A stretch of 64,000 bases of DNA, taken from positions 196,647 to 260,646 of the forward strand of contig CACJJR010000001.1 of NCBI GenBank assembly GCA_902593795.1, read 5' to 3'. Within the stretch, counting starts at the first letter, position 1; the number at the start of each line of letters is the position of its first letter. The translations under genes were made by a program, and so were the position numbers. Of this stretch, positions 2,396 through 63,999 are shown one piece after another. The DNA comes from an uncultured Candidatus Actinomarina sp. (lineage in GTDB: Bacteria > Actinomycetota > Acidimicrobiia > Actinomarinales > Actinomarinaceae). Below the pieces are notes generated by a model. It ran no database searches and was not told where the DNA came from. It saw only the letters and a list, made by a program, of their open reading frames with translations.

Positions 2396-3133
2396 TTAAA
2401 TAATTTTTTGCTCTCTAAACCACTGATGAATTTCACTCAATACAAATGTTCTGGTGTCTTGATTAAGGATCTCATGTTTAGAGTTCTCTACTTTGATAAA
2501 CTTTACATTTTCTAATTTAGAAATTTTGCTACTTGCTTTAACAGGTACAATTTTGTCTCCAGAACCGTGCAGGACCAATGTGGGTATTTTTAAATTTTGT
2601 ATATTTTCATTTACAAATTTTTGTTCATTATTTATTTCACTTCCAAACTTAAAGGTAAGACTTCTAAAGACCAGTGGATCATTAAAATAGTTTTCAACAG
2701 TTTCTATATCAGTAGATAAATTTTTCTTAGTTACCGGTGAAGGTGCTCGTAATTTTGGAAAAATCTTTGAAAGTCCTCCTGACATATTTTTAATAAATTT
2801 TGGGTAATAATCATCAAAGTGAGGGGCGGAGAGAATTAGATAGTCAGGCTTTATCCTATTTCTCAAAATTGCTGAAACTGATACTAGCGATCCATAGGAG
2901 TGGGCAAAAATAATTGTTTTATCTTTTTTTTCTAGTTCACTAAAAGCACTTGAAATTGCAGTCAAGTTCTCTTCCCATGACTCAATATGCCCTTTTTCAT
3001 TAAGTTCTCCATGTCCAGGCAAATTAAATGAAAAAGCCTCAATACCTAGTTTTTCTAACCATGCAACATTATCTTTGTGACGTCCTTTGTGTTCAAATAA
3101 TCCATGTAGTACTAATGCTCCAAAATTAGACAC
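2396..3133 (-). CDS. alpha/beta-hydrolase (lysophospholipase/monoacylglycerol lipase-like)
   Basis: HG oxyanion motif near N-terminus (LVLHGLFEH), nucleophile elbow AHSYGS, C-terminal His; 245 aa. Confidence 0.7.
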   Translation of the reverse strand: MSNFGALVLHGLFEHKGRHKDNVAWLEKLGIEAFSFNLPGHGELNEKGHIESWEENLTAISSAFSELEKKDKTIIFAHSYGSLVSVSAILRNRIKPDYLILSAPHFDDYYPKFIKNMSGGLSKIFPKLRAPSPVTKKNLSTDIETVENYFNDPLVFRSLTFKFGSEINNEQKFVNENIQNLKIPTLVLHGSGDKIVPVKASSKISKLENVKFIKVENSKHEILNQDTRTFVLSEIHQWFREQKII

Positions 3134-3165
3134 AAGCTCTCCTTTTTTTTATTAAATTAATAATA

Positions 3166-3876
3166 ATGAATATAGACTTCATAAAAGTACCATTTTTAAA
3201 TAATCCTTCTATGCAAAAGTATGATGGACCATTGTTCAACCATAATCCTGATAAAAAATATTTAGTTAAAAAAAAGGAAGAATTAGAGAAATATGGGGGT
3301 GATTTATACGGACAAACAAAACAATTTAAAAATTCCAACTTAAACAGCAAAGTTAATCAACTCCTAGGGCTAAATAAAAATGAGTCTTTTTTAAACACAG
3401 CAATGGAAATTGAAGAAGATTTGGCAGTAATGTATGAGGGAAATCTTGAAGCTATATGTTTTTGCTTTCCTAGCGGATGGATCCCAAGTAATGAATTAAA
3501 ATCAAATTTTTCTAAATTACATATGCCTGTTGCAGATAATGATCAGTTAATAAAATCAAGTAAAAAACTTACAGAACATATGACTAAAAAAACTATTCGA
3601 AGATGGGTATGGAATTTAACCACTATTTCGAATTTAAGCAATCACCCAAACGAAAATCGACCTGAGATTACTGATTTTGAAAGTCTATATTTCAGACTTG
3701 AAACACAAATATCAGTTCCTTTAGATAATAAATCAAGTTTATTTCTTGTAAAAGTAGAAGTATTTCCACTAAAGGAAGTTTGGGATGAAATAATTCTTGA
3801 AAGTATTAATTCAATGAGTGAAAATATTTTACATTATAAAAAATTAATTGAAATAAAGAAATTTTTAAATAGCTGA
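3166..3876 (+). CDS. hypothetical protein
   Basis: Long ORF with no overlapping alternative; no recognisable family from sequence alone (possible DUF3445-like). Confidence 0.4.
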   Translation: MNIDFIKVPFLNNPSMQKYDGPLFNHNPDKKYLVKKKEELEKYGGDLYGQTKQFKNSNLNSKVNQLLGLNKNESFLNTAMEIEEDLAVMYEGNLEAICFCFPSGWIPSNELKSNFSKLHMPVADNDQLIKSSKKLTEHMTKKTIRRWVWNLTTISNLSNHPNENRPEITDFESLYFRLETQISVPLDNKSSLFLVKVEVFPLKEVWDEIILESINSMSENILHYKKLIEIKKFLNS

Positions 3877-12045: not shown

Positions 12046-13299
12046 ATGCTAGACCCTGCATTATTAAAAAATGATTTAGAAACTCTTAAATTAAATATTT
12101 CAAGAAGAAACTTAAATGTAGATATTGACTTTTTAATAAATCTAAATGAAGAAAGAAAAAAACTTAGATTTGAAGCTGAACAAAAGCGTTCTGAACAAAA
12201 AGAGATTGGGAAAGAAATTGCAACCGCTGATGATAAAAGTAAAGAAGGCCTATTAAGTCAGGCATCAAGTATAAGTAATGAAGTCAAAGCTTTATTTGAG
12301 AAAGTTGACCAAAAGGATGAAGAATTTTTTAATAATTGGGTTAAAATTCCAAATATTATTTCAGAAACATCTCCAGACGGAAAATCCGACAGTGATAATT
12401 TAGAAATTAAAAAAATTGGCAATATTAAGGAAATGAAAAATCCGAGAGATCATTTAGAAATTGCATCAAAATTAAACCTTATAGATGTAGAAAAGGCTTC
12501 TGAGGTATCAGGTTCTAGATTTGCATATTTATTTGGAGATTTAGTCAAAATTGAATTCAATCTTGTTTCGTGGGCTTTAAATAAGCTATCAGACAAAGGT
12601 TTTACTCCAACTGTCCCACCTGTATTGGTTCGAGAAAATGCGCTATATGGAACAGGTTTTTTTCCTGATGATGCCGAACAAGTATATGAAATTCCTAATG
12701 ATGATTTATTCCTTGTAGGCACTTCAGAAGTGCCTTTGGCTGCACTACATACAAATGAGATATTAAATATAAAAAATTTACCACTCAGATATGCAGGATT
12801 CTCTACATGTTTCAGGAGGGAAGCTGGCACATATGGAAAAGACACAACGGGTATCTTTAGAGTTCATCAGTTTGATAAAGTTGAGATGTTCTCCTTTTGT
12901 GACCCTGTAAAGTCTAAAGAAGAGCATGAGTTTATCCTTTCTGTAGAAGAAGAATTATTGCAGGCTTTAGAAATTCCCTACAGAGTAGTAGACGTATGTG
13001 CTGGAGATTTGGGCGCATCTGCTGCGAAGAAGTTTGATATCGAAGCTTGGATTCCAAGTCAAAATACATACAGAGAAGTTACATCTTGTTCAAACACTAC
13101 AGACTATCAAGCAAGAAGGCTGAACATAAGGGCAAAAGATGAAGGTAGCACATCAGTTCTTCATACTTTAAACGGTACAGCAATTGCAGTTGGAAGGATA
13201 CTAATTGCACTCATTGAGAATAATCAAAATACAGACGGGTCAGTTGTATTTTCTGATAAGGTAGCTGAAATAATAGGGGTCGAGCAGTTAGGCAAGTAA
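12046..13299 (+). CDS. serS: seryl-tRNA synthetase
   Basis: N-terminal coiled-coil arm plus class II core motifs (FRRE, GLDTxxxF-like, GSALAVGRxLxA). Confidence 0.9.
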   Translation: MLDPALLKNDLETLKLNISRRNLNVDIDFLINLNEERKKLRFEAEQKRSEQKEIGKEIATADDKSKEGLLSQASSISNEVKALFEKVDQKDEEFFNNWVKIPNIISETSPDGKSDSDNLEIKKIGNIKEMKNPRDHLEIASKLNLIDVEKASEVSGSRFAYLFGDLVKIEFNLVSWALNKLSDKGFTPTVPPVLVRENALYGTGFFPDDAEQVYEIPNDDLFLVGTSEVPLAALHTNEILNIKNLPLRYAGFSTCFRREAGTYGKDTTGIFRVHQFDKVEMFSFCDPVKSKEEHEFILSVEEELLQALEIPYRVVDVCAGDLGASAAKKFDIEAWIPSQNTYREVTSCSNTTDYQARRLNIRAKDEGSTSVLHTLNGTAIAVGRILIALIENNQNTDGSVVFSDKVAEIIGVEQLGK

Positions 13300-13839
13300 C
13301 AAACTAGAGATCATACTTAAGGCAAGTAGTACATATACCAGCCTTTCTAATTTTGCATTTTTCAAGAGAAAGTTTTGCAATGCTTCACCTAAAAATAACC
13401 AGGTTATTACACACGGACCACCAACTAGTAAATAAATTAAATTTGCTTGCAAGTGAGGGATGTCAAAAGCCGTTAAGCCAGATACTGCCATTACAACACC
13501 CTTAGGATTTACCCATTGGAAAAGTGCTGCCTGAAAAAATGTAAAAGGCTTTTCAGAGCTATTAGTTTGTTTATCCGAAGTTTTTGTAAGTGCAATTTTA
13601 TATGCAATATAAGTAATTACAATATATCCAGCATATTGCAGATACTGAAAAACAACTTCAGGAATATAAGATAATAAATTTCCACCTAGAAAGAAAAGGA
13701 AATTAAACCCCAACCAAATTCCAAAAAAATGAGGAAGTGATTTTTTTCTTCCAAACCTTATTCCAGAGGCCATTAACATCGAATTATTTGGACCAGGAGT
13801 TATAGAGGTTACAAAAGCAAAAATTCCAAATTCAAACAT
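13288..13839 (-). CDS. LysE/RhtB-family amino-acid exporter
   Basis: ITPGPNN hallmark near N-terminus, ~6 TM, 183 aa. Confidence 0.7.
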   Translation of the reverse strand: MFEFGIFAFVTSITPGPNNSMLMASGIRFGRKKSLPHFFGIWLGFNFLFFLGGNLLSYIPEVVFQYLQYAGYIVITYIAYKIALTKTSDKQTNSSEKPFTFFQAALFQWVNPKGVVMAVSGLTAFDIPHLQANLIYLLVGGPCVITWLFLGEALQNFLLKNAKLERLVYVLLALSMISSLLLA

Positions 13840-13870
13840 TGTTATATATTAGATAGATAAATTATTAATG

Positions 13871-13959
13871 CGGAGGGGGTGGGATTTGAACTCAGGGAGT
13901 CTATAGAGACTCACGACATTTCGAGTGTCGCGCACTAGACCGGACTATGCGACCCCTCC
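13871..13959 (-). tRNA. tRNA-Ser (anticodon CGA)
   Basis: Reverse complement: GGAGGGG acceptor, anticodon loop CTCGAAA, long variable arm, TTCAAAT T-loop. Confidence 0.8.
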
Positions 13960-13979
13960 AGATGTGTATTATTAACATT

Positions 13980-14438
13980 ATGGATTATAAGACTGATGAA
14001 AAAAAGATGAAAGTTGCGCTTGAACAAGCAAATTTAGCTTTTGATAAAAACGAGGTACCTGTTGGCGCAGCAATATTTGATAGCAACAATAATTTGATTT
14101 GTGCAAATCATAATCGTAGAGAAGTTGATAATAACCCAACAGCTCATGCTGAAATACTCGTATTGCAAGAGGCAGCACAAATATTAGGTAGTTGGCGGCT
14201 TGAAAACACAACACTTGCAGTTACGTTGGAACCAGATGCGATGTGTGCTGGTGCAATAGTCATTGCAAGAATAAAGAAACTTATATACGGGGCAGCTAAT
14301 TTAAAAGCCGGTGCAGCATATTCACTTTACAATATTCCACAAGATGCTCGTCTTAACCACCATGTCGATATAAAAGATAATATTCTCTCCCATGAATCCG
14401 AAGCTATATTATCCTCTTTCTTTGACAGCAAGAGATAA
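13980..14438 (+). CDS. tadA: tRNA-specific adenosine-34 deaminase
   Basis: CDA-fold HAE zinc motif and (P-D-A-M-C-A-G-A) second motif; start moved to first ATG clear of the tRNA. Confidence 0.8.
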   Translation: MDYKTDEKKMKVALEQANLAFDKNEVPVGAAIFDSNNNLICANHNRREVDNNPTAHAEILVLQEAAQILGSWRLENTTLAVTLEPDAMCAGAIVIARIKKLIYGAANLKAGAAYSLYNIPQDARLNHHVDIKDNILSHESEAILSSFFDSKR

Positions 14439-14464
14439 CTAAAATAGAATCTCAGGTTTTTTTC

Positions 14465-14553
14465 GGAGGGATCGCATAGTCTGGCCTAGTGCGCACGCTT
14501 GGAAAGCGTGTAAGGGTTTATCCCCTTCGAGGGTTCGAATCCCTCTCCCTCCG
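14465..14553 (+). tRNA. tRNA-Ser (anticodon GGA)
   Basis: GGAGGGA acceptor, anticodon loop TTGGAAA, long variable arm, GAGGG/CCCTC T-stem. Confidence 0.85.
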
Positions 14554-14574
14554 CAAAAAAAAAAGAAGACATCT

Positions 14575-14660
14575 GGAGGGATGGCCGAGCGGACGAAGGC
14601 GATAGTCTTGAAAACTATTGTATGTATTCCATACCGTGGGTTCGAATCCCACTCCCTCCG
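14575..14660 (+). tRNA. tRNA-Ser (anticodon TGA)
   Basis: GGAGGGA acceptor, anticodon loop CTTGAAA, long variable arm. Confidence 0.85.
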
Positions 14661-14667
14661 CTGACTT

Positions 14668-14757
14668 GGAGAGGTGACTGAGTGGCCTAAAGTGCTCGCC
14701 TGCTAAGCGAGTGGGGAAGAAATTCCCTCGAGGGTTCGAATCCCTCCCTCTCCGCCA
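14668..14757 (+). tRNA. tRNA-Ser (anticodon GCT)
   Basis: GGAGAGG acceptor, anticodon loop CTGCTAA, long variable arm, CCA encoded. Confidence 0.85.
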
Positions 14758-14758
14758 T

Positions 14759-14832
14759 GCGCCTGTAGCTTAACTGGATAGAGCATCTGATTACGGATCA
14801 GAAGGTTGGGGGTTCGACTCCCTCCAGGCGTG
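14759..14832 (+). tRNA. tRNA-Arg (anticodon ACG)
   Basis: GCGCCTG acceptor, anticodon loop TTACGGA, 5-nt variable loop; begins 1 nt after the previous tRNA. Confidence 0.85.
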
Positions 14833-14843
14833 CTTATAATCTT

Positions 14844-28472: not shown

Positions 28473-30554
28473 CTAGAGTTTTCTTGATGAGTTAACTACT
28501 ACAGAGATACTTGAAAGGGCCATTGCTAGAGCAGCTAAATTAGGTGTAATGATGCCTATTACTGCAATGGGGATCATCAAAGTGTTGTAAATAAATGCTA
28601 GAAAGAGGTTTTGGTATATTCTAAGTTTTGATTTTTTAGATAATTTGAATATTTTATTTAAAGTTTCTAAACCACCCTTGTGAATTAAAATATCACCAGA
28701 AACTTGTGCTATTTGACTACTTGAAGATGTAGTTACTCCAACATCTGCTTGCTTGATAGAAGGAGAATCATTAATACCATCACCGATAAAAATAACTTGA
28801 TTGCTTTCTTGCTTGTTTTTTATAAACTCTAATTTTTCTTCAGGATTTTTGCCAAAGTGATATTCATCTACGTTAAGATTGTCAGCAAATTTTTTAACAT
28901 TAATTTCTTTATCACCTGAGAGAATTATTATTTCTTTTTCTAACTTAAGTTCATTCAAAAAGTCTGTTGAAACGGAGGATTCCTCTTCTAAGTAAATAAT
29001 ATAGACTTTCTCATTGATTGTAACCTTTAGAGAGGACTCTTTCGAGTCAACATTATTTTGAATCTTAATATGTTGTCCTTCAACCACTCCTTCTATACCA
29101 ACACCTGATTGTTCTTTAACGTCTTGAGCTGAAAGCAGTGTTATTTCTCTTATCTCGGATTGATAAACTATACTTTTTGCAATCGGATGTTGTGAGAAAT
29201 TCTCAACACTTGCAACCCACTGTAAGAAAATTTCTTCAGACATAATCTCATCTGGCATTTCTATTTTTGTAATTTTAAAAATTCCTGACGAAAGAGTTCC
29301 TGTTTTATCAAAGATCAGTGTATTAATGTCACCAAACTTTTGTAGAATATCAAAATTCTTAAAAAGAAAGCCACGTGCTTTACTTTTTGTTGCTGTTTTA
29401 AATAAAACAATAGGTGTTGCAAGTCCTAATGCGCATGGACATGCAATTACAAGAACAGCAATTGAATTTTTCAATGCTTCTATCAATACAACATCTTGAA
29501 TAAAGTATTTGTATATAAACGTAATAAGACTTATAAATAAGACGCTAGGTACAAAAAATTGTGTAATTTTGTCTAGAGATTTTTGAATTTCTGGCTTTGT
29601 ACCTTGAGCCTTTCTTATCAAATCTTCAATGATGTTATATGTTGATTTTTGGTAAGATTCTTTGACCTCAACTTCGAGACTTCCTTGCAAATTTATACTT
29701 CCCCCTACTACTGCATCACCAATGTTCTTTGGTAAAGGAATTGACTCTCCAGTTAAGAGGCTTTCGTCAACTGTTGTTTCTCCCTTGATAACTTTTCCAT
29801 CAACAGGAATAATTTCACCTGCTAAAACAATAAATACATCTTTGGTTTGCACATCCTTCGTGTGTATTTCGATATTTTCATCATTTCTCTTAACAATTAG
29901 TGTTTTAGGCATTCTGCTCTTAATGGATTCAGAAGTTCTTACAGATTCTTCAATAACCCTGTCTTCAATTGACTTTCCAATAAGTAAAAATGAAATAATA
30001 AATGCTCCGGTATCAAGAAACATTTTATTTTCTCCTGCTGATGAGACCAACTCAGAAGGCAAAATAGAAATTAGTAGAGAGCTCAAGCTCCCTAAAGAGA
30101 TTAAAGTGTCCATGTTAAAATCAAGATTTTTAATTTTTTTATAAGCAGAAATATGAAAATTTCTTCCTAGAAAGAGTACAACAATAAAACCAACAATATA
30201 GGCTACGGTGTCAAACCCTGCTTCAAAAAGATACTTCAGCGATAAAGTCATTATCAAAGAAGTTATGGGTAAAAGTAACTTAAGTTTTATTTTTTTATCT
30301 ACAACTTCATCTGATGCTTCTTTGGCTTTGTAACCAATTTTATTTACAGATTTTATTATTTCTTCTAAGTTATCATTCTCGTCTGTAACATCAACAATTG
30401 CAGATTTTAGAGGAAAGCTTACAGATGCATCTAGAACATTTTTATTTTTAGAAAGAATTCGCTCAATACGTGCTGCACAGGCAGCACAGGTCATTCCATC
30501 AATATCTAGATTTATTGATTTAACTTGACTGGACAACTGTGTAACCTTGCTCAT
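28473..30554 (-). CDS. copA: copper-translocating P1B-type ATPase
   Basis: N-terminal HMA (GMTCAACAARIE), CPC in TM6, DKTGT phosphorylation motif, GDGINDSP. Confidence 0.9.
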   Translation of the reverse strand: MSKVTQLSSQVKSINLDIDGMTCAACAARIERILSKNKNVLDASVSFPLKSAIVDVTDENDNLEEIIKSVNKIGYKAKEASDEVVDKKIKLKLLLPITSLIMTLSLKYLFEAGFDTVAYIVGFIVVLFLGRNFHISAYKKIKNLDFNMDTLISLGSLSSLLISILPSELVSSAGENKMFLDTGAFIISFLLIGKSIEDRVIEESVRTSESIKSRMPKTLIVKRNDENIEIHTKDVQTKDVFIVLAGEIIPVDGKVIKGETTVDESLLTGESIPLPKNIGDAVVGGSINLQGSLEVEVKESYQKSTYNIIEDLIRKAQGTKPEIQKSLDKITQFFVPSVLFISLITFIYKYFIQDVVLIEALKNSIAVLVIACPCALGLATPIVLFKTATKSKARGFLFKNFDILQKFGDINTLIFDKTGTLSSGIFKITKIEMPDEIMSEEIFLQWVASVENFSQHPIAKSIVYQSEIREITLLSAQDVKEQSGVGIEGVVEGQHIKIQNNVDSKESSLKVTINEKVYIIYLEEESSVSTDFLNELKLEKEIIILSGDKEINVKKFADNLNVDEYHFGKNPEEKLEFIKNKQESNQVIFIGDGINDSPSIKQADVGVTTSSSSQIAQVSGDILIHKGGLETLNKIFKLSKKSKLRIYQNLFLAFIYNTLMIPIAVIGIITPNLAALAMALSSISVVVNSSRKL

Positions 30555-30729
30555 CTAGCATCTCAGATACAAGAGATAAGTTTAAGTCACTAGTAGATTT
30601 TACTGCTACTGATTTTTGTTCAATATCTACAGCCACACTTACTACAGATTCAATATTGCCAACAGTTGATTCAATAGTTTCTTTACAATGTCCACAACTA
30701 ATTTCAGGTACGGTGAATTTTGTTTCCAT
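30520..30729 (-). CDS. copZ: copper chaperone CopZ (HMA domain)
   Basis: 69 aa, MxCxHC-type metal site (SCGHCKETIE). Confidence 0.8.
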   Translation of the reverse strand: METKFTVPEISCGHCKETIESTVGNIESVVSVAVDIEQKSVAVKSTSDLNLSLVSEMLDEQGYTVVQSS

Positions 30730-30758
30730 ATGTTTATTTTAATAATGTTAGGTTATAA

Positions 30759-30788
30759 AATAAGCCCCTTTTTAACAAGGGGCTTATT
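30759..30788. promoter_or_regulatory. perfect 12-bp-arm palindrome AATAAGCCCCTT-N6-AAGGGGCTTATT between small CCCH gene and copZ (operator or terminator hairpin)
   Basis: Reverse-complement arms read directly; C4/G4 tracts resemble CsoR-type operators; also foldable as a hairpin. Confidence 0.4.
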
Positions 30789-30790
30789 GA

Positions 30791-30828
30791 AAATCTCTTG
30801 GGGGGGAGATTTCGTTAAGGGGGGTTAA
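30791..30828. promoter_or_regulatory. two tandem G-tract motifs flanked by short inverted repeats (AAATCTCTT-G7-AGATTT; TTAA-G6-TTAA)
   Basis: G6/G7 runs are conspicuous in this AT-rich DNA; architecture resembles RcnR/CsoR type-1 sites. Confidence 0.35.
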
Positions 30829-30831
30829 AAC

Positions 30832-31026
30832 TTAAGCAGTTTCTTGGAGAATTCTGCCTCTTACCCTTGGGTATTTCACTGGAGCGTGATTGAAGCAATG
30901 ATCTCTTTTGTTGTAAATACTAAGTTGAGTGCTGCAAGATTCATCTTTGCATACTCTGCCCTGGTCAAAACTTTTTGATGGCCTAATACCACCTTTAATT
31001 TGACTAGCTTTTAATCCGTCTGTCAT
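30832..31026 (-). CDS. small CCCH zinc-ribbon-like protein (paralog of 54245..54448), unknown family
   Basis: 64 aa; C-x4-C-x12-C-x2-H, shared HAPV.YPRVRG C-terminus and ASQ.K.G.R.SK N-terminus with the dnaK-upstream paralog. Confidence 0.5.
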   Translation of the reverse strand: MTDGLKASQIKGGIRPSKSFDQGRVCKDESCSTQLSIYNKRDHCFNHAPVKYPRVRGRILQETA

Positions 31027-31045
31027 TTTTATCCTTTATATACTT

Positions 31046-31061
31046 TGTGAATATATTCACA
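31046..31061. promoter_or_regulatory. perfect CRP/FNR-type palindrome TGTGA-ATATAT-TCACA
   Basis: Exact match to TGTGA-N6-TCACA consensus, centred ~27 nt upstream of the small CCCH gene start codon. Confidence 0.45.
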
Positions 31062-31091
31062 AGCTTAACACTTTTATTTTAGATGACAACC

Positions 31092-33027: not shown

Positions 33028-33264
33028 ATGGAAATCAAACTTGAATTTTGTGTAGTTTGAAACTACACACCTCGTGCAGTTGGCACGATTGAAGACGTTT
33101 TAGAAATATATGGAAATAAAGTTACTTCTATTAATTTGATTCCAAGCGGTGGTGGAGTATTTGAATTTCATTTAAATGAAAAATTATTATTTTCAAAAAA
33201 AGAACTTGGAAGACACTCTGATGATGGAGAAATACTAAAACTAATCGAAGAAGAAGTTGGTTGA
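33028..33264 (+). CDS. selW: SelW-like (Rdx family) selenoprotein, in-frame UGA=Sec at 33058..33060
   Basis: MEIKLEFCVV-U-NYTPRAVG: CxxU redox motif; downstream LIPSGGGVFEF...FSKKELGRH matches bacterial SelW-like PGSGG.FE..WSKK..GRFP; 67 stop-free codons after the TGA. Confidence 0.8.
33072..33088 (+). promoter_or_regulatory. bacterial SECIS-like hairpin for the SelW-like gene
   Basis: 17-nt stem-loop tCGTGC-AGTTG-GCACGa beginning exactly 11 nt after UGA, GU in apical loop; fits the E. coli fdhF minimal SECIS geometry. Confidence 0.55.
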
Positions 33265-61329: not shown

Positions 61330-62154
61330 GTGTATTTTATAAATGAGGAAGAGGTTGAGAAAGAGCACTTTCACATACCAGTTGAAAATTTAGCTGTATG
61401 GCGAGGTGATGGAGTTTTTGAAGCATTAAAGATACATGATTATTACCCTTTTGGTATAGACAAGCATATTGAAAGACTAAAGCAGTCTTGTAGAAAACAA
61501 TTATTTGAAAATGTTGATTTCAACCTTATTGAGAATAATATTTTAAAAATTGCGTCACAGTATAAAAATGGCTACGTCAGGATTCTTATTTTGAGAAATA
61601 GCTCTGATGAAGATTTTACAATTTATTCTTTTTATCAACTGCCAATTAATATTCCAGAGAATTATAAATTAGAATCTCAACCTGCTCCCTGGCATCCTGG
61701 GGGAGATTTTGAAGTTAATAGTGATAATATTGTTGGGTCTAAATCAACTTCATATGCATACAATATTAAACAGACAAGAGAAGCTATAAGGAATGGGTTT
61801 AGTGATGCGTTGCTTCTTAGTAGCAAAGGAGTAGTTCTAGAAGGCCCCACGTTCTCAGTGGGGTGGATTAAAGATGAGATAATATATGTTCCAGATTTAG
61901 ACCTGGGGATACTCGATTCAATTACTAGGAAATATTTGCTTGAATTTGGAAGTAAAAATAAAATTAATACAGCAGTATCTAGAGTGACTATAGATGAGTT
62001 GTATATGGTAGATACAGTTTTTGCTATGTCCACTGCCAAACATGGAATATTTGTATCTAAAATTGATGACAAAGAGTACAAGCAATCACCTTTATTGAAC
62101 ACTATTCAAGATTTATTCAAGAAAGAAGTTTTAAAGGAAAAACAAGAAAGTTAA
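61330..62154 (+). CDS. class IV (fold type IV) PLP-dependent aminotransferase / aminodeoxychorismate-lyase-like
   Basis: BCAT/PabC-like length and N-terminal RGDGVFE pattern. Confidence 0.7.
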   Translation: MYFINEEEVEKEHFHIPVENLAVWRGDGVFEALKIHDYYPFGIDKHIERLKQSCRKQLFENVDFNLIENNILKIASQYKNGYVRILILRNSSDEDFTIYSFYQLPINIPENYKLESQPAPWHPGGDFEVNSDNIVGSKSTSYAYNIKQTREAIRNGFSDALLLSSKGVVLEGPTFSVGWIKDEIIYVPDLDLGILDSITRKYLLEFGSKNKINTAVSRVTIDELYMVDTVFAMSTAKHGIFVSKIDDKEYKQSPLLNTIQDLFKKEVLKEKQES

Positions 62155-62164
62155 GGAGGGTAAA

Positions 62165-63193
62165 GTGAGACTTACAGAGTATTCTCATGGCTCTGGTTGA
62201 GCATGTAAACTCTCCCAAGGAGAGCTTGCTCAGGTTCTGAAGCAATTACAACAAAATAATCACAACAATTCTGAAATTTTAGTTGGACTAGATAACCCTG
62301 ATGATGGCGCAGTTATTGATTTGGGAAATAATTTAAAAATAGTTCAAACTGTAGATTTTTTTACACCTATCCTTGATGACCCTTATGACTGGGGTAGAGT
62401 TGCTGCTGCGAATGCATTGTCTGACATATACGCCATGGGTGGAGTGCCTATTTCTTCACTTCAGTTAGTAAGTTGGCCAAGAGATGAGATAGGATTTGAT
62501 ATCTTATCAAGAGTTATTAATGGCGGTTCAGATGTGATGAAATCAGCAAAGTGCAGTATTGTAGGCGGGCATAGTATTGATGATAAAGAGCCAAAATATG
62601 GCTTTGCTGTGACAGGGATAATTAATGAAAAAATATATAAAAAAACTGAAATTAAAAAAGGTGATAGACTCTTTTTGACCAAACCACTTGGCTCAGGAAT
62701 AATTGCGACAGCAATCAAAAAAGGTAAAGCTGAAAAAGAAGCTATAAGTCAAGTTACAGAGATTATGACAACATTAAATGATAGAGGTTTAGCAGTAGCC
62801 AATAATCTAAATGCCAACGCTGTTACAGATGTCACAGGCTTTGGACTTCTTGGGCATTTAAGTGAAATGTTGATTAATGATAATTTGTCAGCAAATTTAA
62901 TCTTTAACGACATTCCAATAATTGAGTATGCAAAAAAATATTTTGAGGAGGGAATTTATCCGTCTGGCAGTCAAAGAAATTTTAATACTTTGAAGGATTC
63001 CATAACATTTGAAAATGAAGACGAAGCATTACTATTATCTGATGCTCAAACTAGTGGAGGTCTTTTAATTGCTGCCCCTAAGGAAACAAATGTAGATTTT
63101 AGCGACATTGAAAAATCACATGGAGTAATAATAAAAGAAATTGGGAATATAACTGATAGATATAATAAAAAAATAAATATTATTAGTAATTGA
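62165..63193 (+). CDS. selD: selenophosphate synthetase (selenide, water dikinase), Sec-containing; UGA=Sec at 62198..62200
   Basis: GTG start 10 nt after AAGGAGGG RBS; RLTEYSHGSG-U-ACK aligns with E. coli RLTQYSHGAGCGCK (Sec at Cys17 position); downstream DFFTPILDDPYDWGRVAAANALSDIYAMGG matches SelD core. Confidence 0.85.
62207..62227 (+). promoter_or_regulatory. candidate SECIS hairpin for selD
   Basis: CTCTCC-CAA-GGAGAG stem-loop (extendable by 2 bp) starting 9 nt after UGA. Confidence 0.4.
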
Positions 63194-63999
63194 TGATAAA
63201 AACATTAACTAAAATATTCGCACTAACAGCAGTGACTAAAAGCTTACTTGAAACGAAGAAAAGTCAGTCTGAGGGAACAACTCAGTTACATCCAAGTAAA
63301 ATTCCCGGAAGAACTCTATTTATCAGAGAAAAAGAGTTTTTTGTTAGAGAGAATACTGTAGAGGGAACAGTACCAGTTGTATTTCTTCATAGCTGGGGAT
63401 CTGACTCTTTAGGAAGCTGGTTTAAAATACTCCCAAAAATAAAGAAAGAGAGTTCGTTTGTAGCAATCGATATGCGTAATCATGGAAAGTCTGATGCTAG
63501 CTGGGATAGATGGGATGTTGACGAGAATGCAGATATTGTTATAAGTATTTTAAAAGAGCTAAGTATTTCAGAATGTAATATAGTTGGATGGTCAATGGGC
63601 AGTGCTGTTGCGATGTCTGTAGCAAAAAAAAATAAATCACTAGTAAATAAACTTGTTTTGATAACCCCATTCAGCTGGCTTGGTGGAGCCGTCTACAATG
63701 ACAAACTAGCTTTCAAAGTTTTTGTAAGTTTTGTACGAATTAGGGAACGACTATTCCCAAACTTTAATCCAAAATCTAAATTTTCATTTTTAAGAAAATC
63801 AAACTCTATAAATGACGAATATACAGAATGGGCATGGAACAACTTACATAAGTCAAAAGACGACTTTATTTATGCAGATGGAGGAAGATTTGTTGTACCA
63901 TACGATGCACGTCCTTGGATAGAAGAGATAGAAGCTGAAACATTGGTCATTACAGGTGGCAAAGATAAGCTTGTACCTGAGGAGACATCAAACGATGTT
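63193..63999 (+). CDS. alpha/beta-hydrolase, 3' end beyond window
   Basis: ATG overlaps selD stop (TGATG); HG-type N-terminus (VVFLHSWGS), GWSMG nucleophile elbow; frame open to window end. Confidence 0.6.
   Translation, partial: MIKTLTKIFALTAVTKSLLETKKSQSEGTTQLHPSKIPGRTLFIREKEFFVRENTVEGTVPVVFLHSWGSDSLGSWFKILPKIKKESSFVAIDMRNHGKSDASWDRWDVDENADIVISILKELSISECNIVGWSMGSAVAMSVAKKNKSLVNKLVLITPFSWLGGAVYNDKLAFKVFVSFVRIRERLFPNFNPKSKFSFLRKSNSINDEYTEWAWNNLHKSKDDFIYADGGRFVVPYDARPWIEEIEAETLVITGGKDKLVPEETSNDV

Follow-up and report, generated by a model that had tools for sequence, protein, structure and literature searches.

It has been known since the 1990s that a selenophosphate synthetase can itself be a selenoprotein, and the SelD proteins of Haemophilus influenzae and Aquifex aeolicus (PDB 2YYE/2ZOD) are natural selenoproteins of this kind. 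In these bacterial enzymes selenocysteine (Sec) occupies the position equivalent to Cys17 of Escherichia coli SelD, in the flexible glycine-rich loop at the N-terminus, and an in-frame hairpin follows the UGA codon. Among prokaryotic selenoprotein families SelD is described as second in how widely it occurs (PMC13188914, PMC1794560), and 38 Sec-containing examples were on record by 2006 (PMC1794560). The arrangement is thus long known, and the Actinomarina case has already been reported: a bioRxiv preprint of April 2026, "Actinomarina, resolved", which cites Guimaraes et al. 1996 on the SelD selenoprotein, predicted with deep-Sep a SelD selenoprotein of 342-346 aa with an MRLT... prefix (K01008; 10.64898/2026.04.03.716425). 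Here we describe selD in a 64,000-nt stretch of an uncultured Candidatus Actinomarina sp. (contig CACJJR010000001.1, positions 196,647 to 260,646; hereafter the window, from whose first nucleotide coordinates are counted). We consider it very likely that this gene encodes a Sec-containing SelD, with the in-frame UGA at 62198-62200 decoded as selenocysteine.

By its MRLT prefix and its length, the window protein is the same as the SelD selenoprotein of the preprint (10.64898/2026.04.03.716425). It resembles the H. influenzae and A. aeolicus enzymes in the position of the Sec codon, in the loop around it and in the hairpin behind it. It differs from them in its host, a marine actinobacterium with a genome of ~1.1 Mb and 33% G+C content (GC; also that of the window), and in carrying two hairpins, of which the conserved one has a GUN loop and lies 33 nt from the UGA.

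The predicted gene begins at a GTG codon (62165-62167), and its frame is open across TGA 62198-62200 until the TGA at 63191-63193. Upstream lies a class IV aminotransferase gene (61330..62154, Pfam PF01063) whose TAA (62152-62154) is overlapped by the Shine-Dalgarno sequence of selD, AAGGAGGG; equivalent GGAGG-type motifs precede the selD start in all orthologues. The translation reads VRLTEYSHGSG*ACKLSQGELAQVL... When cysteine was put in for the TGA, the 342-aa read-through product matched TIGR00476 at 379.7 bits (cutoff 125; profile positions 1-309 of 311) and NF002098 at 358.2 bits (cutoff 299). These SelD equivalog models were matched from profile position 1, and over their full length only when the N-terminal extension was included. 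Close relatives of the protein carry the domain pair PF00586 and PF02769 (AIRS and AIRS_C).

Alignment with phmmer to E. coli SelD (PDB 3U0O), which has cysteine at position 17, gave E = 8.7e-78 over residues 1-329; A. aeolicus SelD aligned at E = 1.6e-66. Residues 1-17 of the query, mrlteyshgsgcackls, fell on E. coli residues 6-22, IRLTQYSHGAGCGCKIS, placing the TGA codon on Cys17, C14 on Cys19 and K15 on Lys20. The two proteins thus have the N-terminal motif RLT.YSHG.G-C/U-.CK in common. The E. coli gene encodes Cys at 17, so it needs no selenocysteine insertion sequence (SECIS), whereas the window gene has UGA. We conclude that, by predicted function, this is a full-length selD (selenide, water dikinase, or selenophosphate synthetase) of Candidatus Actinomarina.

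The open reading frame (ORF) delivered by standard gene calling starts instead at TTG 62321 and encodes 290 aa; it is without the N-terminal catalytic loop, and no Shine-Dalgarno sequence precedes its TTG. A first-pass annotation of this DNA had read the locus as a truncated call of a SelD that starts at the GTG behind a strong ribosome-binding site and runs through a TGA at the Cys17-equivalent of the glycine-rich loop. Every one of these elements was present in the DNA, and both the profile and the E. coli alignments bear that reading out.

We compared selD across orthologous DNA loci to assess the conservation of the UGA codon. Of the 20 loci, 8 come from species-representative genomes, another 8 from usable contigs of metagenomes, and 4 more lie on contigs reached via a database protein; protein identity ranges over 44-95%, and a relative with 67% GC (L021) is among them. 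The best genomic match was the Ca. Actinomarina single-amplified genome AG-390-E09 (95% protein identity), and the other genomic matches were metagenome-assembled genomes labelled Actinomarina, Actinomarinales or "Acidimicrobiaceae". The first-pass annotation had named orthologues with a frameshift at this codon as evidence that would speak against it; instead, TGA stood at codon 12 in 20 of 20 loci. The peptide upstream of the UGA was kept as MRLT[EQA][YFW]S[HR]G[SAG]G while its codons changed: Leu3 was encoded by four codons (CTT, CTC, CTG and TTA), and over codons 2-11, where two sequences shared an amino acid, their codons differed in 42% of pairwise comparisons.

This pattern bears on an alternative, that the UGA is a true stop and selD either a pseudogene or a gene for the 290-aa protein from TTG 62321 only. 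Nine database clusters are annotated in that way, and standard gene calling gives the same. Against it, the 33 codons from GTG 62165 toward the called start combine conservation at the protein level with synonymous turnover, down to 44% identity; the Shine-Dalgarno sequence lies before the upstream start in every lineage; the shorter product would be without the glycine-rich loop bearing Cys/Sec17 and Lys20; and a nonsense mutation is not expected to be fixed as TGA in 20 independent assemblies. We give this alternative next to no credence.

Among the 120 closest protein clusters, 111 read HG[AS]G-W-ACK, 9 were N-terminally truncated and none had Cys where the UGA lies. In relatives listed with a length of 290 or 303 aa, the N-terminus is truncated in the same way as in the called ORF. 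The preprint gave the Sec form for about half of the genomes, deep-Sep having made no SelD call in 57 of 113, and presumed the rest to have Cys (10.64898/2026.04.03.716425), which differs from the TGA found here in every locus. Because all 20 loci had TGA and Cys appeared in no cluster of the nearest 120, a shortfall of detection probably explains the "half".

The tryptophan written at the UGA in those 111 clusters raises the question whether the codon is read as Trp, or as Cys or Gly, through near-cognate suppression or through reassignment (genetic codes 4 or 25). Such a reading would also fit the finding that no Sec machinery was detected in the window or in the loci examined. We nevertheless regard it as highly improbable. 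TGA is the stop codon of 8 of the 58 window genes, selD included, and reading past it adds a mere 0-19 codons, so that this organism has not reassigned UGA. The inspected W-form SelD clusters run on past their terminal TGA codon or codons, several of them ending in ...NWW, which is a terminal TGA-TGA translated through to TAA, and in look-ups their DNA did not yield these proteins under code 11. The Trp in public protein sets (loci L023-L026 included) is an artefact of gene calling with code 4 on short, low-GC contigs. Moreover, a Trp or a Gly in place of the catalytic Cys17 would be at odds with known SelD proteins, tRNA-Sec has been reported from all complete Actinomarina genomes (10.64898/2026.04.03.716425), and the UGA is directly followed by a conserved, covarying hairpin, the signature of SelB-dependent decoding. 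We infer that the residue inserted is Sec rather than another amino acid.

Two hairpins, H1 and H2, follow the UGA. For each lineage the stability of the hairpins was compared with that of 1000 synonymous recodings that followed the codon usage of the window itself; covariation was assessed in an alignment of 11 lineages and synonymous divergence in 8 lineages. Synonymous divergence was at its minimum for the gene (0.30-0.34) in 15-codon sub-windows starting at codons 14-20, compared with a median of 0.56 over 333 sub-windows, and H2 lies inside this stretch. Leu21 was CUU in 20/20 sequences, the 67% GC genome included. In 7/7 lineages few recodings were as stable as the natural H2 or more so (0, 14, 0, 3, 25, 31 and 0 per 1000). 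The pair closing the H2 loop (columns 36-40) was G-C in five lineages, A-U in five and unpaired in one; these changes set Gln23 CAG/CAA against Leu25 CUG/UUG and are synonymous on both sides. The fourth pair (columns 33-43), which joins the third base of Ala22 to the first base of codon 26, was U-A in eight lineages, A-U in two and C-G in one. The lower stem occurs in two registers, with a 3' bulge in seven lineages and without one in four. There is RNA-level selection on H2. The segment of the protein encoded by H2, ELAQVL, is not found in E. coli SelD, which has KVLETIL.

H2 also has the form of a bacterial SECIS (bSECIS). The consensus calls for a loop of 3-9 nt, usually with G and then G or U in the first two positions (PMC13188914), and in the bSECISearch model a stem of 4-16 bp, a distance of 16-37 nt from UGA to loop, and a minimum free energy cutoff of -7.5 kcal/mol (PMC13188914). 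The loop (G then U), stem (8 bp) and spacing (33 nt) of H2 fall within these ranges. It departs from the model in its 3' bulge, which is missing in the lineages with the shifted register, and in the extra hairpin, H1, that precedes it. Because of its stability against recoding, its covariation and its fit in loop, stem and spacing, H2 is the probable SECIS core. The preprint found no SECIS, and its Rfam search was negative as well (10.64898/2026.04.03.716425), whereas a conserved, covarying hairpin is defined here.

The most divergent locus, L021 (positions 2558-3559 of metagenome contig Ga0114129_10017638, 67% GC), encodes a SelD 44% identical to that of the window and keeps the UGA. Its H2 is nearly identical, GAGCUUGCCCAGGUACUGGGCAA, with a perfect 8-bp stem and a GUA loop. 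The codons CUU and GUA used in this element are expected to be uncommon at 67% GC. Since so distant a relative retains both the UGA and a near-identical H2, the sequences place the origin of the element, as far as this one relative can indicate, before that of the Actinomarinales.

A scan of the window for ORFs tolerant of TGA identified a second candidate selenoprotein gene, of 78 codons, whose product reads MEIKLEFCVV-U-NYTPRAV... It matched Pfam Rdx (PF10262; SelW/SelT/SelH family) at 2.6e-15, with the UGA inside the CxxU redox motif, and some of its relatives carry the Joint Genome Institute label "selenoprotein W-related protein". Of 96 database relatives, 78 read CVVW or CMSW, the same code-4 artefact, 18 were without the motif region (mostly shorter, N-terminally truncated entries) and none had CVVC. 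A hairpin with a GUU-containing loop follows the UGA here too. An orthologue with 69% identity has CCGUGC-AGUUA-GUACGG, in which a U-A pair is replaced by a compensatory C-G, and a relative with 49% identity has a 7-bp stem with a GUU triloop. No other gene of this kind emerged from the window: the remaining TGA-interrupted ORFs and TGA codons followed by G-loop hairpins were off-frame noise inside genes. Because two unrelated genes have UGA at canonical Sec positions with GUU-type loops downstream, Sec decoding in this organism is argued to be active.

The Rdx/SelW-like protein is very probably the preprint's most abundant selenoprotein family, described there as "uncharacterised 78-aa" (10.64898/2026.04.03.716425). 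Database copies of both window genes have Trp written for the Sec codon (HGSGWACK in selD, CVVWNY in Rdx), with overruns ending ...NWW and ...GWAFHLT. Directly downstream, a gene for a TauE/SafE-family membrane protein (PF01925; 33261-33995, plus strand) has no internal TGA, and its TTG start overlaps the Rdx stop as TTGA, an arrangement that suggests translational coupling. The preprint's third selenoprotein group, "K07090", could be the Rdx ORF mapped onto this overlapping neighbour, but that is speculative.

Which of the two selD hairpins SelB would bind can be judged against the Rdx gene. H1, CUCUCC-CAA-GGAGAG, was the hairpin named in the first-pass annotation; it is present at 62210-62224, 9 nt after the TGA, as described, but it is not the conserved one. 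It begins at a distance close to the 11 nt of the Rdx hairpin. In the window lineage it is strongly non-random (0/1000 recodings), with values of 0-7/1000 across the window, L005, L003 and L006; 83% of its cells are paired over the 11 lineages, two pairs have changed on both sides, and the 67% GC relative still has a 7-bp hairpin there. A reading in which Sec is decoded but SelB binds H1, or a composite of H1 and H2, with H2 alone secondary, draws on these points. Yet H1 is reduced to 4 bp or shifted in register in L002, L007/L016 and L023, and the values of 30-79/1000 in L002, L007 and L023 do not stand clearly above recodings. Its loops (CAA, CAG, ACCUA, CCC) have no conserved G at either of their two leading positions and its UGA-to-loop distance is only 15 nt, so that it falls outside the bSECIS consensus on two counts; and the GUU motif of the Rdx loop recurs in H2, not in H1. 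We consider this alternative unlikely, and H2 rather than H1 to be the likely SelB-binding element; H1 may be accessory.

When H1 is folded, the UGA and the G of the H2 loop stand 18 nt apart (33 minus 15), just as in the Rdx gene. This agreement is a speculative lead. A tentative proposal, which we would not yet favour, goes further: the selD signal would be a two-hairpin composite in which H1 acts as a foldable spacer, and/or the Sec form of SelD, instead of being polymorphic with Cys, would be fixed throughout the Actinomarinales and in one or more distant high-GC relatives.

Several observations weigh against a Sec-decoded selD with H2 as its SECIS. Taken alone, H2 folds at -5.5 kcal/mol and does not reach the cutoff of -7.5 kcal/mol, while H1 and H2 together (48 nt) reach -14.2 and a 71-nt stretch -20.7 kcal/mol; the outcome against the cutoff depends on the stretch that is counted. 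The loop of H2, 33 nt from the UGA, is near the upper limit of the consensus, compared with 17 nt in the Rdx gene. No Rfam family matched, and permissive E-values on 62100-62400 returned chance hits only. RNAalifold on 8 sequences favoured a different fold, in which the UGA pairs with GCUCA in a long stem around H1; we rejected it on account of an unfavourable covariation term (+0.38) and because no more than one pair had changed on both sides. As for the decoding machinery, ARAGORN found no tRNA-Sec in the 64-kb window or the 20 loci, tblastn with the E. coli SelA and SelB queries (NC_000913.3) found no match in the window and ~30 loci, and the presence of selA, selB and selC in this organism is taken from the literature, namely a preprint that is not peer-reviewed. 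Scans of the window with Rfam at gathering thresholds likewise found no tRNA-Sec, and NCBIfam and Pfam scans of its 24 largest or unassigned ORFs found no SelA or SelB.

In that preprint, 84 of 84 complete Actinomarina genomes have selC (tRNAscan-SE), selA and selD (KofamScan, strict thresholds) and a divergent, sub-threshold selB, while YbbB was not found in them (10.64898/2026.04.03.716425). In its Supplementary Table 8, positions counted from dnaA as fractions of the chromosome are 0.075-0.086 for selD and 0.100-0.112 for selC (10.64898/2026.04.03.716425). From these fractions, selC would lie ~25-29 kb beyond selD. The left part of the window holds dnaX and a PASTA-domain Ser/Thr kinase gene of PknB type, and in actinobacteria such genes are usually near the origin. 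If the left part is origin-proximal here too, the spacing in Supplementary Table 8 would put selC past the right-hand end of the window, and this would account for its not being found there.

In the rows of that table compared here, those marked "selC in HVR = Y" (hypervariable region) give selA, selC and selD at 0.109, 0.890 and 0.911, and those marked "N" at ~0.90-0.93, 0.10 and 0.08; mirrored (1 - x), the former roughly match the latter. As far as these rows show, the preprint's placing of selC inside a hypervariable region for 32 of 84 genomes may reflect an artefact of chromosome orientation.

Taken together, the comparisons favour a Sec-containing SelD produced by what is most likely the standard bacterial route. 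Translation would start at GTG 62165, and the UGA, at the place of Cys17 in the E. coli enzyme, would put Sec into the glycine-rich loop near the N-terminus (HGSG-U-ACK). SelB carrying Sec-tRNA(Sec) would bind an mRNA hairpin just 3' of the UGA, and the tRNA would be delivered when the UGA enters the A site. H2, capped by its GUU triloop, would be the SECIS core, and H1, between the UGA and H2, would perhaps serve only to shorten the spacing. The final UGA, which lacks such a hairpin, ends translation.

The gene holds, on this prediction, two kinds of UGA, one read as Sec and one terminating, and the difference between them is the hairpin downstream of the former. Its 3' end reads UGA-UGA-UAA (63191-63199), and the ATG (63193) of a downstream alpha/beta-hydrolase gene overlaps the first of these UGA codons. 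The coordinates of both candidate selenoprotein genes and their hairpins are collected in Table 1.

Table 1. Features of the selD and Rdx/SelW-like genes in the window
Feature	Position	Strand	Description
Shine-Dalgarno sequence AAGGAGGG	62153..62160	+	read directly; 4-nt gap to the GTG start; overlaps the aminotransferase stop
selD, full-length coding sequence	62165..63193	+	342 codons; GTG start; Sec-UGA predicted at codon 12; terminator UGA 63191-63193
In-frame UGA, predicted Sec codon	62198..62200	+	equivalent of E. coli SelD Cys17 by alignment to 3U0O
Hairpin H1, CUCUCC-CAA-GGAGAG	62210..62224	+	starts 9 nt after the UGA; varies between lineages; possible accessory or spacer helix
Hairpin H2, UUGCUCAG-GUU-CUG[A]AGCAA	62226..62245	+	8 bp with one bulged 3' base; GUN triloop 33 nt after the UGA; probable SECIS core
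Gene-caller ORF	62321..63193	+	TTG start, 290 aa; N-terminally truncated artefact of selD
Rdx/SelW-like gene	33028-33264	+	78 codons; ATG 33028; predicted Sec-UGA 33058-33060; stop TGA 33262-33264
Rdx hairpin, UCGUGC-AGUUG-GCACGA	33072-33088	+	starts 11 nt after the Rdx UGA

The seryl-tRNA synthetase (SerRS) also charges tRNA-Sec; in the window its gene, serS (12046..13299), adjoins a cluster of four tRNA-Ser genes (anticodons CGA, GGA, UGA and GCU) and one for tRNA-Arg at 13870-14833 (whole span 12046-14833), and no tRNA-Sec lies inside that cluster. A copper P-type ATPase gene occupies 28473..30554, and upstream of it, at 30520-31026 on the minus strand, are a CopZ-like ORF of 69 aa that bears a CGHC motif and another ORF, of 64 aa, containing Cys and His. 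Neither of these two ORFs has an in-frame TGA, and the gap at 30555-31091 held them and no selenoprotein.

For the organism, the finding confirms what was already reported in 2026, that an abundant and extremely streamlined ocean bacterium keeps Sec decoding and has its selenium-activating enzyme under selenium control. Our analysis adds a defined, covariation-supported SECIS hairpin for selD of the Actinomarinales, in which the conserved hairpin is H2 and not the H1 named in the first-pass annotation; evidence that the UGA form extends to all sampled Actinomarinales and is not confined to about half of the genomes; and the very probable identification of the preprint's 78-aa selenoprotein as SelW-like/Rdx. 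It follows for public data that most copies of this SelD are wrong at the catalytic residue, being either cut to 290 aa or given Trp through code 4. Should the composite signal prove true, it would represent a variant SECIS architecture; and if the Sec form is fixed throughout the order, one of the smallest free-living cells would be caught in a self-referential loop, with a SelD that needs its own product.

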